DNA of 64,000 nucleotides from Candidatus Spechtbacterales bacterium (GTDB lineage: Bacteria; Patescibacteriota; Minisyncoccia; Spechtbacterales; 2-12-FULL-38-22). The notes beneath the pieces were generated by a model. It ran no database searches, was not told the origin of the DNA, and saw nothing but the letters and a program-made list of their open reading frames with translations. The translations under genes and the position numbers were made by a program. Where the stretch lies: contig JBBDKX010000035.1 of NCBI GenBank assembly GCA_040879145.1, forward strand, positions 1,122 through 65,121. The letters are read 5' to 3'. Position 1 is the first letter of the stretch. Each line of letters begins with the position of its first letter. Below are positions 8,663-57,846 of the stretch, piece after piece.

Positions 8663-8664
8663 TG

Positions 8665-8735
8665 TTGCCTCGCAGGGATTCGAACCCCAGTTTTCGGTTC
8701 CAGAGACCGACGTTCTACCACTGAACTACGAGGCA
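8665..8735 (-). tRNA. tRNA-Gln (anticodon CUG)
   Basis: hand-folded: U1-A72 acceptor TGCCTCG/CGAGGCA, D-arm GTTCAGTGGTAGAAC, anticodon loop CTCTGGA, T-loop TTCGAAT; no encoded CCA. Confidence 0.7.
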
Positions 8736-8850
8736 ATATGTACAAATTTTTTAAAAACTTCTCTTCAACTACGGGGCAATGAACATTTTGTATCTTACCT
8801 TAATCAATATTCTTTATCAAGAAAAAGCCCCACAAAAAATGCGAGGCTCG

Positions 8851-8933
8851 TGCCGGAGGCGGGATTTGAACCCGCACGCTCATAGAGCAACGGAGTTTAA
8901 GTCCGTCATGTCTGCCTATTCCACCACTCCGGC
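8851..8933 (-). tRNA. tRNA-Leu (anticodon UAA), class II with long variable arm
   Basis: acceptor GCCGGAG/CTCCGGC, anticodon stem ACGGA/TCCGT loop CTTAAAC, variable hairpin, T-arm GCGGGTTCAAATCCCGC. Confidence 0.8.
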
Positions 8934-8980
8934 AAGGAACAAAGTTTTCTGCTTCGCATAAACATTTATGCGAAGTTTCG

Positions 8981-9052
8981 TGCGCGCGGCTGGGATTGAA
9001 CCAGCGACCTCCTGCGTGTAAGGCAGGCGCTCTTCCGCTAAGCTACGCGCGC
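8981..9052 (-). tRNA. tRNA-Val (anticodon UAC)
   Basis: acceptor GCGCGCG, anticodon stem CCTGC/GCAGG loop CTTACAC, T-arm GCTGGTTCAATCCCAGC. Confidence 0.8.
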
Positions 9053-9071
9053 AGTTTGCGAAGTGAAATAA

Positions 9072-9263
9072 TCACTTCTTTTTCTTATCTCTTTTTTCCT
9101 TGATGAGGAATCCCCGCCTCGCGCCTTCCGCGCGGGAAAGAGGAAATGGTTTGCCGTCATTTGCGGCAACAATTTCTTCCGCCTCATGGCGGGGCATTCC
9201 GCGTTGAACCATTGCCTCAACCCACTCTTCGCGGGTTAAGACCTGTACTTCGTTATCACTCAT
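9072..9263 (-). CDS. small hypothetical protein (63 aa, Lys-rich C-terminus)
   Basis: ATG overlaps stop of upstream small ORF (gATGAgtgataa); embedded in tRNA array. Confidence 0.4.
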   Translation of the reverse strand: MSDNEVQVLTREEWVEAMVQRGMPRHEAEEIVAANDGKPFPLSRAEGARRGFLIKEKRDKKKK

Positions 9264-9453
9264 CTTCACTCCTTTCTTTCTTGTACTTAGGGCAGACACG
9301 TGCCGCGCCTTCTACCCCTCCCGCAACACGGTCTTTCGTATTCTCCCGACAATAATCACACTGTATGACATGCCGGAACATTCTTTCATTTTCTTGGCGC
9401 GCCTCACGCACCTGTTCCGCGAGTGTCTTTTGCATTGTTACCTCCATACTCAT
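9256..9453 (-). CDS. small hypothetical protein (65 aa) with CxxC-x18-C zinc-ribbon-like motif, possible DksA/TraR-like
   Basis: coiled N-part AEQVREARQENERM then CDYC...VCPKY. Confidence 0.35.
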   Translation of the reverse strand: MSMEVTMQKTLAEQVREARQENERMFRHVIQCDYCRENTKDRVAGGVEGAARVCPKYKKERSEDE

Positions 9454-9469
9454 ACAAGGAACCGTCTCG

Positions 9470-9544
9470 TGCCCCCGGCAGGATTTGAACCTGCGACTTT
9501 CGGATTAGAAGTCCGATGCTCTATCCGGACTGAGCTACAAGGGC
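9470..9544 (-). tRNA. tRNA-Arg (anticodon UCU)
   Basis: D-arm GCTCAGTCCGGATAGAGC, anticodon stem TCGGA/TCCGA loop CTTCTAA, T-arm GCAGGTTCAAATCCTGC. Confidence 0.8.
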
Positions 9545-9616
9545 GTAGTATCCCCTCGCCTCTATTTTAGAGGCGAGGGGTTCGTCCTCCTTCTCGTAAA
9601 GATACGGAAGGACACG

Positions 9617-9689
9617 TGGGTCGTCAGGGAATCGAACCCTGAACCTTCGGGTTAAAAGCCCGCTGCTCTGCCAATTGAGCTAACGACCC
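9617..9689 (-). tRNA. tRNA-Lys (anticodon UUU)
   Basis: acceptor GGGTCGT/ACGACCC, anticodon loop CTTTTAA, T-arm CAGGGTTCGATTCCCTG. Confidence 0.8.
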
Positions 9690-9727
9690 GTGTGTAGCCC
9701 GCTGTCATTTATGACAGCGGGCTTGCG

Positions 9728-9802
9728 TGCGCCCGGCTGGCTTTGAACCAGCGACCCCCACTTTATAAGAGTGGTGCTCTCACCAGACTGAGCTACGGGC
9801 GC
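9728..9802 (-). tRNA. tRNA-Ile (anticodon UAU)
   Basis: acceptor GCGCCCG/CGGGCGC, D-arm GCTCAGTCTGGTGAGAGC, anticodon stem CCACT/AGTGG loop CTTATAA (34-36 = TAT). Confidence 0.7.
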
Positions 9803-50423: not shown

Positions 50424-51332
50424 TTAAGCTTTTCTCAAGCGCTCTGCCCAGCTAACAAGAATAGGGCTTGCTATAAAGATAGAAGAGTACGTTCCTATGG
50501 CAATACCTACAATTAATGTGAAGATGAAATTATGTATTGTTTCTCCCCCAAAAAAGAATACGGCAAAAAGAACAAGTAGTGTTGTTAAAGATGTGTTCAA
50601 AGATCTGACAACACTCTCTTTAACACTTGCCGAAACAAGTTCGTTAAAGTCTTTTTGGTTGCCAAAACGAAGTATATTCTCTCTCACCCTGTCAAACACA
50701 ACAATAGTGTCGTTTACAGAGTAACCCACTATGGTAAGCAGGGCCGCAATAAAAGGAACACCCACCTCTGTACCTTTAAAATGGGTAAATATTGCAAAAA
50801 ATCCAACCGTTATAATAACGTCGTGAAACAACGTAATTAAAGCGATGACACCATATCGCACGGAACCCAAAGGGTACGATATTCTGCGGAATGCCCACGC
50901 GACATAAACAACAATCATAGCAAGCACAAGCCCCATGGCCCAAGCGGATTTGCTTATTGTTTCACGGCCTATCACAGGCCCCACGCTTTGAAACTGTTTC
51001 TCTTCTACTTCAGCTTCACTTGCCTCGGTTATTTTAGCTAAAATCTCCTGGTGTGTTTCCTCATCAACATCGCGAAAACGCAAAATAAGAGAGTCGTCTC
51101 CTCCCTGTTGAATACTAATGCTTCCCAAATCAATATCACTCAAAGCGCTTGTCACATCCTCACGCGAAAGTATTGTTATATTGCCATCCTCATCCGGTAA
51201 AAAACCGACCTCCATCAAAGAGCCGCCTTTGAAATCTATACCTAAAGGCAACTTAAATACCGCGACTCCTATAATACTCACAGTTATAAGTACAGTAGAT
51301 AATATATAAAATATTTTTCTCTTTTCTATCAT
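50424..51332 (-). CDS. secF: protein translocase subunit SecF
   Basis: SecD/SecF family TM core, SVNDTIVVFDRVREN. Confidence 0.9.
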   Translation of the reverse strand: MIEKRKIFYILSTVLITVSIIGVAVFKLPLGIDFKGGSLMEVGFLPDEDGNITILSREDVTSALSDIDLGSISIQQGGDDSLILRFRDVDEETHQEILAKITEASEAEVEEKQFQSVGPVIGRETISKSAWAMGLVLAMIVVYVAWAFRRISYPLGSVRYGVIALITLFHDVIITVGFFAIFTHFKGTEVGVPFIAALLTIVGYSVNDTIVVFDRVRENILRFGNQKDFNELVSASVKESVVRSLNTSLTTLLVLFAVFFFGGETIHNFIFTLIVGIAIGTYSSIFIASPILVSWAERLRKA

Positions 51333-51341
51333 AATTAATAG

Positions 51342-52883
51342 TTAACGCGACCAGATAAATTTAATGGTTTCAAGTTTGCCTGTTAAAAACAACTTCATAA
51401 GATACTTTGTTACAACCATCGCGGAGAACATGCTAACAACAATACCCAGCCCCAGCGTTAAAGCGAACCCCTGCACGAAACTTGTTGAAAACCAAAACAG
51501 TATTACAGCAGTGAGCAGGGTTGATATGTTTCCGTCTCTTATTGAAGGCCACGCTCTTTCAAACGCCTTATCTACAGCATAAGACACATTTTCAACATCT
51601 CTTAACTCTTCCCGCAAACGCTCAAAAATAAGCACATTGGCATCTACGGCCATTCCAATAGACAGTATAAGACCTGCTATTCCGGCAAGTGTGAGTGTAA
51701 TAGGTATTGTCTTTATAAGCGCCAGGATAAACGCTATGTACATCAAAAGAGAGACAGCCGCTAAAAGACCGCTAAAACGATACATAATAACTATAAACGC
51801 GAGAACTGCCAAAACAGCTATGGCTCCCGCACGCAGGCTTGCCGCAAGCGACTCTTCACCGAGCGCGGCGCCTATTCTCTGTTGGGCTATAATGCTTATC
51901 GGAACAGGAAGCGCTCCCGCGTTTAGGTTTCGTACGAGCTCTCTTGCCTCATCTACAGTAAAGTTTCCGGTTATAACAGCTTGTCCGCCCGCTATTGCCT
52001 GGTTTACTGTAGGAATAGAAACAGGTGTTCCATCAAGATATATAGCAACTACAGAACCGATATTTCTCTTTGTTATTTCCTCAAACAACTCCGAACCCTC
52101 TTCATTAAACTGCAACCCTATTTGTAGCTCTCCGGTCTGCGGATGTGTCGTCACACTAGCCCTTTCTAAAAATTGTCCCGTGAGACTTGTACTTCTAAAA
52201 CACGGGTCTTCTCCGAGTATCTGGGTAAATGTCGCTATTCCCTGAGTATTGGCGCCGCTACAAATACTTGCAATCTGTTGGTCGCTAATCTCTCCTTGTT
52301 CTTCCACAAATCCGGATAAAACCTGAGACAGCGCCTGTTTTTGTTCTTCAAAAGGTCTTACCTCTTTGAACTCCAAAAACGGAGTCTGTCCTATTTGTTC
52401 TATGGCCTTATCCGGGTCGCTTATTCCCGCAAGTTCAACTATAAGGCGTGATGAATCATCACCCTGCTCTATTTGCACCACAGGTTCTGAAACCCCAAGG
52501 AAGTTAACTCGTCTTTCTATCGCGTCGCGTAAAGATTCCATAGCATCCTTCTGGTCGCTTTCTCTTATGCCGGAGAGATTGGCTTCATATACCAGGTGGA
52601 TGCCACCCTGCAAATCAAGACCTAAAGAGTAAGGACTTTCAGAGAATTTAGGAACGCGTGCAAAATTATCAATGGCGCGTAAAACTCCCCACTTGTCATA
52701 CTGTCCCACGTACCGGTTTGCATCTACAGCTTCCAGTTTAGGGTTTGACCAATCCGCAAACTGGTTCCAGTATTTAGGGTAATCTAAATTAGCCGCAAAA
52801 AATGCGGCAATCAAAATTAGAAATACAAATATCCAAGTTTGTCCTCTCTTTGTTGGTTTACGAAAAAGTCGCTTCAAAAACAT
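51342..52883 (-). CDS. secD: protein translocase subunit SecD
   Basis: GLDLQGGIHLVYE periplasmic domain, C-terminal 6 TM; ATG at 52883 (ORF track TTG start 52937). Confidence 0.9.
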   Translation of the reverse strand: MFLKRLFRKPTKRGQTWIFVFLILIAAFFAANLDYPKYWNQFADWSNPKLEAVDANRYVGQYDKWGVLRAIDNFARVPKFSESPYSLGLDLQGGIHLVYEANLSGIRESDQKDAMESLRDAIERRVNFLGVSEPVVQIEQGDDSSRLIVELAGISDPDKAIEQIGQTPFLEFKEVRPFEEQKQALSQVLSGFVEEQGEISDQQIASICSGANTQGIATFTQILGEDPCFRSTSLTGQFLERASVTTHPQTGELQIGLQFNEEGSELFEEITKRNIGSVVAIYLDGTPVSIPTVNQAIAGGQAVITGNFTVDEARELVRNLNAGALPVPISIIAQQRIGAALGEESLAASLRAGAIAVLAVLAFIVIMYRFSGLLAAVSLLMYIAFILALIKTIPITLTLAGIAGLILSIGMAVDANVLIFERLREELRDVENVSYAVDKAFERAWPSIRDGNISTLLTAVILFWFSTSFVQGFALTLGLGIVVSMFSAMVVTKYLMKLFLTGKLETIKFIWSR

Positions 52884-52937
52884 ACCTTGAATATGATAAT
52901 TAAGTTTACAAAGAAAATCAAGGGGGTTCATCCCCAA

Positions 52938-53012
52938 GCCGGTTCATTTTAGCCGGTCGGACTCTTTCTTCCGACCCCTTTACTTCCAACCTTACTATAA
53001 GTCCTATTCTTC
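52938..53012 (-). promoter_or_regulatory. promoter-like module with TA(A/T)AAT box, hairpin ggtcggaagaaaNagtccgacc and ATAGGAC 9-bp repeats, upstream of secD
   Basis: near-identical module at 53715..53813 upstream of ssrA. Confidence 0.5.
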
Positions 53013-53029
53013 AAAAACAAAAAGCACCA

Positions 53030-53285
53030 CATTTAAGTGGTGCGAAGAACATTAGGTGGCTGCACTCTCCCGTTACTCAAGCGGAAGAGTGCAGCATTTC
53101 CAACGCCGACAGCTTCGCTGTCGGGCATCCTCGATTGCTTTGCAATCGGGACAAGTGCCGAGGTCGGAAAAATTAGGCCGCGCGCCCCCGGAGAAAGGGT
53201 GAAGAGCCCAGAAGGGGCGCGCGACCTATAGGGCGAGTGCGACTCAGTGTCCGCCATCACAGTGAGAGCAGAACGGCACAGGCCC
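53030..53285. other. GC-rich 250-nt segment with 5+ stable hairpins immediately 3' of tmRNA; candidate structured RNA or terminator cluster
   Basis: gctgcactctcccgttactcaagcggaagagtgcagc, cgacagcttcgctgtcg, gcgcgccccc...ggggcgcgc, gcaccacttaaatgtggtgc. Confidence 0.3.
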
Positions 53286-53643
53286 TGGTGGAGGTGCCGG
53301 GAATTGAACCCGGGTCCGGCGTAATATTCATAAGCGTTTTAGTTTACGTGCGTTGACTCCGTAAAATTTCGGAAGGGTTATACAGAGACAGATTCACCTT
53401 TCCTATCCGTTGTTCAGTGTCCCTTGCAAAGCACTTCGGAAAAAGCTTTGCTTCGGCAAGCACTCTGGTTCTTCTTAGCTTAGAATGCGTGGGCTAAGAA
53501 GCTGGTTGCTCTTTCAGGCGGCAGCCAGGAGGCCTCTGCTATTTGTGGCAGTTATATGTTTCCAGCGACGGTTTACGAGCACACGCTGGTTTCTCGGCAC
53601 GAGTTCTTAGTTTCAACGACACCGTCGAGACCAATTCACCCCC
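53286..53643 (-). ncRNA. ssrA: tmRNA (SsrA), one-piece, CCA encoded
   Basis: 5' GGGGGUGAAUUGGUCUCGACG..., 3' ...GGACCCGGGUUCAAUUCCCGGCACCUCCACCA; acceptor stem pairs. Confidence 0.9.
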
Positions 53644-53714
53644 ATGAGTTTAAAGGTACAATTTGTGTGGACCGGTTTTTGACAGAAACCAGTCCGGAAA
53701 AACTGCGGCAAGTA

Positions 53715-53813
53715 TCAGTTGCCGGTTCATTATAGCCGGTCGGACTATTTCTTCCGACCCCTTTACTTCCAATCATCCTATAGGTCCTATTCGTCCTATA
53801 GGTCCTATTCTTC
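53715..53813 (-). promoter_or_regulatory. promoter-like module (TATAAT box + hairpin) with four ATAGGAC 9-bp tandem repeats, ~95 nt upstream of tmRNA 5' end
   Basis: ggaagtaaaggggtcggaagaaatagtccgaccggctataatgaaccggc; gaataggacctataggacgaataggacctataggat. Confidence 0.5.
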
Positions 53814-53935
53814 AGAAACAAAGGGGTTGTGGAGACACTTAAGGCGGTCTCCATTTGCCTTTCTTTGCTTTCTTCCTATATGGCAAAGAACTACACGTTT
53901 TTAGGGCGGTCTCTTCCGTGCGCCGCCAGGCCGCT

Positions 53936-54238
53936 TCAGACGGGTTGCAGTTGGTCCGGGTCAACAATGACAAGTCTCGTAGACTTGCCCTGCTTCCGGT
54001 CCAACTCCACCGTGTAGTTCGGGAAGTCCAGAATCTCTGTTCCGTTCTTTTCCGTCACGGTGGTGATACCGGCAACTGCCGGACAGCGGTGTTCGTCGGG
54101 AACTCCGACGACCACACCCTGAAGGGTGCCCCGGCGAGTGCTAACCACCCGGCGATGTAAGCTCTCATTGAGAGTAAGCACCTCAACCGGAAGGATAACG
54201 AACACGCGCGTTCCCACCTGAAGTCTATTTTCGGCCAT
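53936..54238 (-). CDS. hypothetical protein (100 aa) in GC-rich segment
   Basis: strong SD ttaaggaggtgaaATG; no family recognised. Confidence 0.5.
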   Translation of the reverse strand: MAENRLQVGTRVFVILPVEVLTLNESLHRRVVSTRRGTLQGVVVGVPDEHRCPAVAGITTVTEKNGTEILDFPNYTVELDRKQGKSTRLVIVDPDQLQPV

Positions 54239-54239
54239 T

Positions 54240-54560
54240 TCACCTCCTTAAGGTGTTGTGAAAGGTTCAAGGGAAGAGGTTTCGGAATAACTGCCGCGTT
54301 CGCTTTGTTATCCTACTTCCTCTCCCCCGCATTTAAACCCAGTCAAGTAATTCTGCCGCGGCCTGAGTGCTGGGTCACCCTCAAGCTGCAGAGCCGGTCA
54401 AAATTCGGACACCACTACCACCGACAGGCAATGTGGTTCCTACTCTGCTTCCTCAGAAGCATTCAGATAAACACAGTTCCTGTATTCATCTAAATACCGC
54501 CGATTATTAAAGATTGAGTGCCGCCGGCGCTCAATTCCAGTAAGCAGCAGACTACTGGAA
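54240..54560 (-). other. ~320-nt GC-rich highly structured leader/ncRNA candidate upstream of the 100-aa ORF
   Basis: 12-bp stem ccgccggcgctc/gagcgccggcgg with nested ccagta..tactgg hairpin, further helices. Confidence 0.35.
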
Positions 54561-54708
54561 GAGCGCCGGCGGAACCTGTAAGGATGTTAAACACCCCAAA
54601 CCTTAAGAACGAACTACATTATAGCATTTATGTATAAAAAAGTCAACACCCACGACACTATATAGAATGAATTCCTCATTAATTTTCAAATATGCTATAG
54701 TAGAACAT

Positions 54709-57805: not shown

Positions 57806-57846
57806 CCAATAAGTCCTATAAGTCCTATTGGTCCTATTGGTCCTCT
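57806..57846. repeat. ATAGGAC-type 9-bp tandem repeats (x4) overlapping the M50 protease stop
   Basis: ccaataagtcctataagtcctattggtcctattggtcctc. Confidence 0.6.

Follow-up and report, generated by a model that had tools for sequence, protein, structure and literature searches.

The 64,000-nt stretch analysed here (the window; contig JBBDKX010000035.1) comes from a metagenome-assembled genome of Candidatus Spechtbacterales (Patescibacteria; candidate phyla radiation, CPR) and averages about 41% GC. Between a UvrD-type helicase gene and secD it holds a promoter, a structured leader RNA, a gene for a 100-aa orphan protein, further RNA structure in the 3′ region and the tmRNA gene ssrA, all on the minus strand (Table 1). 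Read 5′ to 3′ on that strand, the promoter is followed by a leader of about 373 nt, the 100-aa open reading frame (ORF), about 290 nt of hairpins, the tmRNA, a GC-rich structured stretch, secD and secF. With the tmRNA gene itself at 53286-53643 on the minus strand, the leader–ORF module therefore sits 5′ of ssrA and in the same orientation. A preliminary description, made from the letters alone, had reported here a GC-rich segment upstream of ssrA, a 100-aa ORF with a perfect Shine-Dalgarno (SD) sequence and a 12-bp stem, and we find all of these: GC is 0.50-0.59 in 200-nt windows over 53800-54500, against about 0.39-0.45 in 1-kb windows elsewhere, and the stem and the SD are both present. The extent it gave was too short. 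It placed about 320 nt of nested helices before the ORF, within a segment at 53830-54600; the structure is there, but the leader is longer, the promoter lies beyond 54600 and conserved structure extends past the ORF as well, between 53927 and ssrA.

The leader is a real and new family of structured RNA, with covariation in its helices. We retrieved the contigs encoding homologues of the ORF product (L001, L002, L003 and L004) and compared them with the window; the leader is present in the window, L001, L002 and L003 (n = 4), and the ORF in these and in the leaderless L004 (n = 5), from some three or four independent lineages. L001 aligns to the window across promoter, leader, ORF and 3′ untranslated region (UTR), and the same leader RNA is found in L002 and L003, whose proteins are 38% (BLASTP) and 42% identical. 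The promoter is also conserved in L001, L002 and L004; in the window, transcription probably begins near 54611. On the minus strand the leader segment (54239-54620) has a predicted minimum free energy (MFE) of −162.7 kcal/mol, compared to −116.8 ± 5.8 in dinucleotide shuffles (z = −7.9, with 0 of 100 shuffles equalling it), and the homologous leaders fold alike (z = −6.6 for L001 and −6.8 for L002). The plus strand of the same segment folds more weakly (MFE −122.3, z = −5.0), and the structured RNA therefore belongs to the strand of the ORF.

Table 1. Features of the locus, from the promoter towards secF, with the divergent helicase gene last (window coordinates).
Feature	Position	Strand	Details
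σ70-type promoter	54618-54646	minus	TTGACT 54646-54641, 17-nt spacer, TATAAT 54623-54618 preceded by TG; 11/12 consensus matches
Structured 5′ leader	54239-54611	minus	about 373 nt; helices P1-P9, about ten helices including one pseudoknot
P1, 5′ strand	54600-54609	minus	UUCUUAAGGU, pairs with ACCUUAAGGA (54254-54245), which overlaps the SD; window and L001 only
P2 hairpin	54581-54597	minus	GGGGUG/CAUCCU; 5/6 pairs covary across window, L001 and L002 (hand-defined helix table)
P3 long GC-rich hairpin	54521-54572	minus	12-bp stem ccgccggcgctc/gagcgccggcgg (54561-54572/54521-54532) plus UUCCAGU/ACUGGAA
P4 long hairpin	54458-54498	minus	19 bp; base UAUUUA/UGAAUG conserved, distal part covaries
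P4b hairpin, junction and P5 hairpin	54404-54460	minus	invariant junction GCAGAGUAGGA (54448-54438); invariant GUCCGAA (54410-54404)
Pseudoknot domain	54338-54392	minus	P8 UCUGC/GCAGA; P6 GGGUG/CACUC; P7, P6 loop CCCAG with downstream CUGGG; CAGGCCGYGGCAG conserved
P9 two-tier hairpin	54273-54325	minus	outer helix GGAGAGG/CCUCUUC (SD-like with anti-SD-like); internal loop AGUA/GAAA; loop AAAGCGAACGCGGCA
SD and 100-aa ORF	53936-54249	minus	AAGGAGG 54249-54243; ATG 54238; TGA 53938-53936; ORF 54238-53936
H-type pseudoknot	53893-53927	minus	8 nt past the stop; S1 GGCGG/CCGCC; S2 GCACG/CGUGU; A-rich linker CUAAAAA
Hairpins B and C	53831-53890	minus	B UUCUUUGC/GCAAAGAA, SD-like loop; C terminator-like, GGAGAC/GUCUCC
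Structured spacer before ssrA	53644-53827	minus	hairpin D ACCCCUUU/AAAGGGGU; E 53759-53738; −10-like CTATAAT 53735-53729 (conserved); F 53724-53706; G 53697-53669
tmRNA (ssrA)	53286-53643	minus	ARAGORN; Rfam 124.5 bits; tag ATNSRGLLAAA; conserved downstream neighbour of the ORF
secD	51342-52937	minus	
secF	50424-51332	minus	
UvrD-type helicase gene	from about 54709		divergent to the leader–ORF unit

A two-sequence RNAalifold prediction from the window and L001 contains 113 pairs, of which 8 are compensatory, 14 differ on one side and none is broken; every L001 substitution inside the predicted helices preserves pairing. In a hand-defined helix table, two-sided covariation occurs in P2, P3, P4, P4b, P5, P8, P6, P7 and P9. 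All five pairs of the P7 pseudoknot change in this hand-made table (CCCAG/CUGGG, AUCCA/UGGAU and UCUAG/CUAGA), as do four of the five in the outer helix of P5, and the middle pair of the P9 outer helix is A-U, U-A or C-G in three lineages. P3 has compensatory changes from C-G to U-A, and its tip carries a 36-nt insertion in L001. In a covariance-model-based alignment of the core (window 54271-54463, four loci), 91.7% of cells are paired, compared to 43-55% with the partners slid, and 15 pairs change on both sides, compared to 1-4 in the slid controls; 0 of 500 shuffles attained the observed values. This alignment has a fifth row, the chance fragment L009, which reaches helices 1 and 2 only. 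The blocks GCAGAGUAGGA, GUCYGAA and CAGGCYGYGGCAG are unpaired and invariant. At P5 the leader displays the signature AGUA-GGA[helix]UCC-GAA, with a less perfect copy in the internal loop of P9. AGUA/GAA is the signature of the loop-E (sarcin-ricin) motif, which the leader sequences resemble, by sequence likeness alone.

Searches of Rfam 15 at gathering thresholds and at E ≤ 10, run on the window and L002, left the leader and the 3′ UTR unmatched, the sub-threshold noise being mostly microRNA-hairpin models; the families that reached gathering score in the window are tmRNA and, elsewhere, tRNAs. The window's other GC-rich peak is an ordinary group of six tRNA genes (Gln, Leu, Val, Arg, Lys and Ile; 8664-9802, minus strand). 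A covariance model of the leader core, run over 258 kb of fetched loci, found four copies, all linked to the ORF. The pattern GCAGAGTAGGA-N56-86-CAGGCYGYGGC occurred in 7 stretches from GTDB genomes and 15 from JGI metagenomes, all of them chance matches by nhmmer and the covariance model, and a leader pattern scan of IMG/VR gave 0 matches. RNase P RNA, T-box, 6S RNA and group I intron, suggested by sequence motifs, were considered as identities for the leader and had no covariance-model support; a likeness to RNase P, AGAUGAAU...ACAGGAAC, is not conserved in L001, and a pairing of leader CAGGCCGCGGCAGA with the stop-codon region is not kept in L002 or L003.

By its pattern of change among relatives, the ORF is a real, fast-evolving protein gene. 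Its product is identical to the NCBI entry ‘hypothetical protein WDZ40_03855’; an exact-sequence query of the contig index with this protein gave no record. A word-indexed search of 5.8 billion protein clusters returned one homologue (71% identity), a full HMMER scan of 1.84 billion representatives returned three further ones of 95-105 aa, and a profile search for more found none beyond these, giving a family of five members among about 15 billion predicted proteins. All five are 95-105 aa long and have a strong SD. Between the ORF and its 71%-identical homologue, the differences at the three codon positions number 21/9/30, 21 codons change synonymously and the one indel, of 12 nt, is in frame; across the family the start ATG, the SD and the position of the stop are conserved and all indels are in frame. 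The five proteins have in common the motifs G-x-R-V-x-V, N/Q-G-[TV]-[IV]-x-[GN]-[VL]-P-D, G-I-[TS] and N-[YF]-x-V-x-L-D, and a C-terminal motif.

Nothing significant was found for the protein in Pfam, NCBIfam, PHROGs, PADLOC or the PDB sequences. AF2, run on the five-sequence alignment, gave an all-beta model (pLDDT 64, pTM 0.59), for which the Foldseek matches of top probability were ferredoxin-thioredoxin reductase chain B, SH3 domains and some eukaryotic ribosomal proteins, all at E ≥ 0.1; weak, non-significant Pfam matches were to Myosin_N and the Xrn1 SH3-like domain. These matches weakly suggest a small SH3-like beta-barrel. The N-terminal half of the protein is basic and its C-terminal part acidic. 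SmpB was considered and set aside: the protein has no SmpB domain (Pfam, NCBIfam), is 100 aa long compared to about 150-160, and lacks a basic C-terminal tail. A tblastn search of the window with E. coli SmpB gave no match. A type I toxin-antitoxin system of the hok type was likewise rejected, the products being of 95-105 aa, soluble and beta-rich rather than hydrophobic toxins of fewer than about 60 aa.

Downstream of the stop codon lies a second pseudoknot, present in five of five loci including the leaderless L004, at stop-to-S1 distances of 8, 8, 10, 9 and 9 nt. The consensus of S2 is GCACG/CGUGY, and L002 has ACCCG/CGGGU. In an alignment of the 3′ region 98.4% of cells are paired, compared to 38-54% when slid, and 9 pairs change on both sides, compared to 0-2; hairpin C is without covariation support because its sequence never varies. 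Across distant locus pairs the nucleotide identity is 70-90% in the 3′ UTR, 69-83% in tmRNA, 61-67% in the leader core and 46-59% in the ORF, so that the 3′ UTR is as conserved as tmRNA. The conserved 3′ nucleotides fall in frames that differ between window/L001 and L003/L004, so that the constraint is on the RNA and not on a read-through peptide. The element resembles the recoding pseudoknots of luteoviruses and murine leukaemia virus (MuLV), and preQ1-I aptamers, in its size of about 35 nt, its two 5-bp stems (the first GC) and its 7-nt A-rich linker, and its distance from the stop agrees with that of recoding signals, in which the pseudoknot lies 5-9 nt downstream of the recoding site. Unlike these it has a 7-nt purine loop between the stems and matches neither preQ1 nor any other Rfam model, and by sequence inspection no extension frame is conserved and the stop is not preceded by a slippery X XXY YYZ heptamer. 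In L003, the segment between hairpin F and the tmRNA (about 757-848) is unlike that of the other loci and contains a long GC-rich hairpin, ggacctccggtgg...ccactggaggtcc.

The neighbours of the module are the same in relatives. In each of the four loci that reach far enough (window, L002, L003 and L004), ssrA follows the ORF at a distance of about 300 nt and in the same orientation. The L002 contig starts within the same divergent helicase (KKQKEAVESASQATMV compared to KKQKEAVESNSPATIV), the L003 contig, truncated at its 5′ end, runs into the start of secD, and the leader–ORF–ssrA block is present with these flanks in both; the order of helicase, leader, ORF, ssrA and secD thus recurs in relatives with ORF products merely 34-42% identical. 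Three other relatives lack the block at this position. In L027 (GCA_033721955.1; SecD 72% identical), the gap between helicase and secD is 507 nt and holds neither the block nor ssrA, and a different promoter-driven GC-rich RNA is found there instead; in L031 (SecD 72%) the block is absent upstream of secD and the locus is not syntenic; in L032 (SecD 66%) ssrA and secD are kept together and the ORF is absent upstream of ssrA. The covariance model found no leader core in these three loci. We conclude that the gene and both RNA elements are real, that their context speaks against a recently acquired cassette, and that the RNA family, which is new, and the orphan protein family are inherited together with ssrA within a narrow CPR clade, in a few relatives inside Candidatus Spechtbacterales.

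The preliminary description had preferred another origin, a horizontally acquired cassette at a tmRNA hotspot, citing the atypical composition, and the compositional anomaly is indeed real. The ORF has a third-position GC content (GC3) of 0.644, compared to a mean of 0.376 (standard deviation (sd) 0.043, maximum 0.460) in the 44 other window ORFs of at least 150 aa, a difference of +6.2 sd. Given the shared flanks and an ORF nucleotide identity of 46-59% among relatives, however, the high GC3 cannot be left over, unameliorated, from a transfer in the recent past; more likely it is maintained, perhaps for RNA structure. Mobile or horizontally acquired DNA inserted beside ssrA would also accord with the absence of the block from L027, L031 and L032 at the places just given, with its position next to tmRNA, as in ssrA genomic islands, and with a direct repeat that flanks ssrA. 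The repeat (52938-53021 and 53721-53822; 75-84 nt, 91-93% identical, spacing 783 nt) contains the 3′ half of hairpin D, hairpin E and the −10-like box; this region, from just upstream of ssrA, recurs just before the secD promoter, and the repeat thus brackets ssrA and its downstream RNA. It is, however, not tmRNA sequence and was not seen in L003, and no direct repeat of the tmRNA 3′ end was found at the window locus. Islands that target ssrA enter at its 3′ end, whereas the module is on the 5′ side; the interval between secD and the helicase encodes no integrase, transposase or other mobility gene, the 100-aa ORF being the sole ORF there with coding support; and BLAST against phages and plasmids, and scans of IMG/VR with the 3′-pseudoknot pattern and the protein, found no relatives. 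Insertion of mobile DNA is therefore quite improbable in our view, and a recent transfer is unsupported.

Several further RNAs and repeats were seen around ssrA and in the relatives. The 275 nt or so that follow the tmRNA (53010-53285, minus strand) reach up to 63.5% GC in a 200-nt window, fold with z = −7.7 and have no Rfam match; they comprise a 16-bp GC hairpin with UAAUUUUU, a branched domain, a 14-bp hairpin and a final terminator. Similar hairpins, of the form GGYCGCGCGC...GCGCGCGGCCAC, come after the tmRNA of L002-L004 and are reminiscent of helix P3 in the leader. Short 9-nt units in tandem, with the pattern nnGTCCTAn (e.g. TAGGTCCTA TTCGTCCTA TAGGTCCTA), occur at three intergenic sites (53776-53822, 52995-53012 and 57812-57842, the last after the helicase terminator); they could represent an array of protein-binding sites or a small family of repeats. 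The helicase–secD spacer of L027 (1611-1975 of L027; JAWVZY010000036.1) has a consensus promoter followed by an RNA of about 330 nt, GC-rich and ending in a terminator, which opens as the window leader does (TAGTTCG), includes a GC hairpin whose loop is CUCCUCC and is without an Rfam match. Upstream of ssrA in L032 (61-270), a promoter (TTGACA, 17 nt, TATAAT) precedes an RNA of about 170 nt with a P3-like hairpin, GGCTCGCGCTC...GAGCGCGAGCC, and a T-run terminator; this is possibly a small RNA akin to the leader's 5′ domain. In L028 (1-1575) and L029 (1-1098), about 1.3 kb upstream of secD have no convincing ORF, tmRNA or Rfam match; L028 410-532 and L029 799-921 share 99% identity, and as the latter stretch corresponds to the DNA of L028 at about 1276-1398, the repeats are internal.

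The promoter match, the covarying RNA structure, the coding nature of the ORF and the shared gene order are all observed here; from them we infer a mechanism in which a lineage-restricted leader controls, in cis, an orphan and possibly RNA-binding protein that is functionally tied to tmRNA, with autoregulation as the preferred form. We favour this explanation tentatively, its probability falling slightly short of an even chance. A strong promoter would drive transcription of the leader, followed by the strongly initiated beta-barrel gene, the post-stop pseudoknot and ssrA. The leader would act on translation of the ORF, the SD region being held in one of two ways: through P1, by the 5′ end of the transcript (window and L001), or by the 3′ strand of P9, which is anti-SD-like, an alternative proposed from complementarity alone. 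The balance between these states of the SD would depend on a factor binding to the conserved core, preferably the encoded protein itself, as in ribosomal-protein leaders, with the two AGUA-GGA...UCC-GAA modules as candidate binding sites. The same protein may act on or with tmRNA, and the likeliest role of the post-stop pseudoknot is to stabilise or define the ORF mRNA at its 3′ end. Protein-mediated autoregulation is favoured because the leader is tied to one orphan gene, because the candidate sites are repeated and because a similar hairpin is found in tmRNA: the modules resemble the AUAGGAAAGG..CCUUCCGAAA hairpin of the adjacent tmRNAs on sequence inspection, a likeness that is short and statistically weak. 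The autoregulatory leaders of E. coli L20 (infC-rpmI-rplT) and S15 (rpsO) are likewise long, pseudoknotted 5′ UTRs before a small gene, with the SD near or within the structure, and the window leader has a possible protein site in two copies, with a similar hairpin in tmRNA; it differs in being larger than any described and in preceding a gene whose product is not a known ribosomal or RNA-binding protein. The preliminary description had offered, as its alternative, a large non-coding RNA or riboswitch-like leader controlling an unknown small protein, and this reading is supported by the covarying RNA, the lack of an Rfam match and the real ORF. It had also listed what would speak against its account, namely a structure without covariation, poor coding statistics and the same GC throughout; instead, the helices covary, the ORF codes and its GC3 stands out from that of the other genes.

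A number of observations weigh against control of the ORF by the leader or against the tie to tmRNA. L004 keeps promoter, SD, ORF, 3′ pseudoknot and ssrA and is missing the leader, and the leader is therefore modular, dispensable or separable. P1 has no covariation, surpasses shuffles by a slim margin (p about 0.07) and is missing from L002, so that as a conserved SD clamp it has no support there, and no SD-sequestering helix common to all lineages is conserved. In L002, P3 is directly followed by ACCUCUUUUUUU, with a run of seven U residues (L002 about 180-285) that resembles an intrinsic terminator and has no counterpart in the window or L001; termination here could thus release the 5′ domain as a small RNA. 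The fold model is moderately confident and has no significant structural match, the proteins are overall not strongly basic (pI 5.6-9.2), the tie to trans-translation comes from gene order alone, and the sample is confined to the copies and lineages counted above.

Some of these observations lend weight to another reading, in which the leader functions independently as a new large structured non-coding RNA, perhaps matured from the 5′ UTR, and shares no more than a transcript with the ORF, or else a ribonucleoprotein with the ORF product, without regulating the ORF. The complexity of the fold (about ten helices, a pseudoknot, invariant junctions) suits such an RNA, the conserved core excludes the SD, L004 does without the leader, P3 of L002 ends in the U run, and the relatives have other promoter-driven, terminator-ended, GC-rich RNAs, in L027 at this locus and in L032 just upstream of ssrA. 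OLE, raiA, ROOL, GOLLD and HEARO RNAs are similarly longer than 350 nt and GC-rich in an AT-rich genome, with many covarying helices and conserved junctions. Their Rfam models, however, do not match, and the window RNA, found at four loci, leads straight into an SD and ORF: the core never occurs away from the ORF in the searched data, the window has no terminator between core and SD, P9 ends just 21 nt upstream of the true SD, and the pairing of SD-like with anti-SD-like strands in its outer helix is typical of expression platforms. We therefore regard a stand-alone RNA as unlikely, though by no means far-fetched. That same platform-like arrangement (GGAGNGG with CCNCUCC, behind a pseudoknotted core) recalls translational riboswitches, and a riboswitch of a new class, sensing a metabolite or ion and controlling translation of the ORF, would explain a conserved, covariation-supported candidate aptamer with invariant unpaired nucleotides between promoter and SD. 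It is decidedly unlikely: the leader is far above the size of known aptamers, it precedes one orphan gene in a very narrow clade and not metabolic, transport or ligand-related genes, it has no Rfam match, no conserved or covariation-supported switching helix was found, and L004 lost the leader and kept the gene.

Two further proposals would bind the locus more closely to tmRNA. In one, leader, protein and post-stop pseudoknot form a lineage-specific tmRNA partner system, in which the protein would be a novel factor that binds tmRNA or assists trans-translation and its synthesis would be set by a leader mimicking the tmRNA hairpin or, through the pseudoknot, by tmRNA activity. We consider this system rather unlikely. 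The smpB-ssrA gene pair, of which rnr-smpB-ssrA in Bacillus is an example, likewise places a small protein gene directly before ssrA in the same orientation, but the window product has no SmpB domain or basic tail and its C-terminal part is acidic. In the other, the post-stop pseudoknot would impair termination or 3′-end formation, and tmRNA tagging would set the level of the protein as it does for E. coli ArfA, making it a backup or accessory factor for ribosome rescue. The constancy of the pseudoknot 8-10 nt past the stop in five of five loci, its tmRNA-like conservation and the unvarying place of the ORF beside ssrA are in keeping with this, but from the geometry of the ribosome footprint the pseudoknot would be just outside a ribosome with the stop in its A site, there is neither a conserved read-through frame nor a slippery site, and the protein, with its acidic C-terminal part, is without the basic tail of ArfA or SmpB, which leaves such control very improbable. 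It is scarcely conceivable, finally, that the ORF is spurious and the whole GC-rich stretch of about 1 kb is one non-coding RNA. The ORF region is more structured than control coding regions (z = −3.7 in the window and −1.1 to −5.1 across the ORF regions, with −2.65 to +1.2 in 12 control chunks), yet it has a bias of change towards codon position 3, in-frame indels throughout, a conserved SD, ATG and stop position, and protein motifs kept in five sequences at 46-59% nucleotide identity.

Large bacterial RNAs with complex folds outside the known families are, to our knowledge, rare, and this leader, with its ten or so helices and a pseudoknot, has covariation support even from four copies. The very narrow distribution restricts its general importance; within one CPR lineage, the leader, an orphan protein family and a second pseudoknot are all fixed beside ssrA. 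Should the protein work with tmRNA, ribosome rescue in these organisms, whose translation machinery is minimal, would gain a new component or regulator; otherwise the locus still defines a new class of structured leader.

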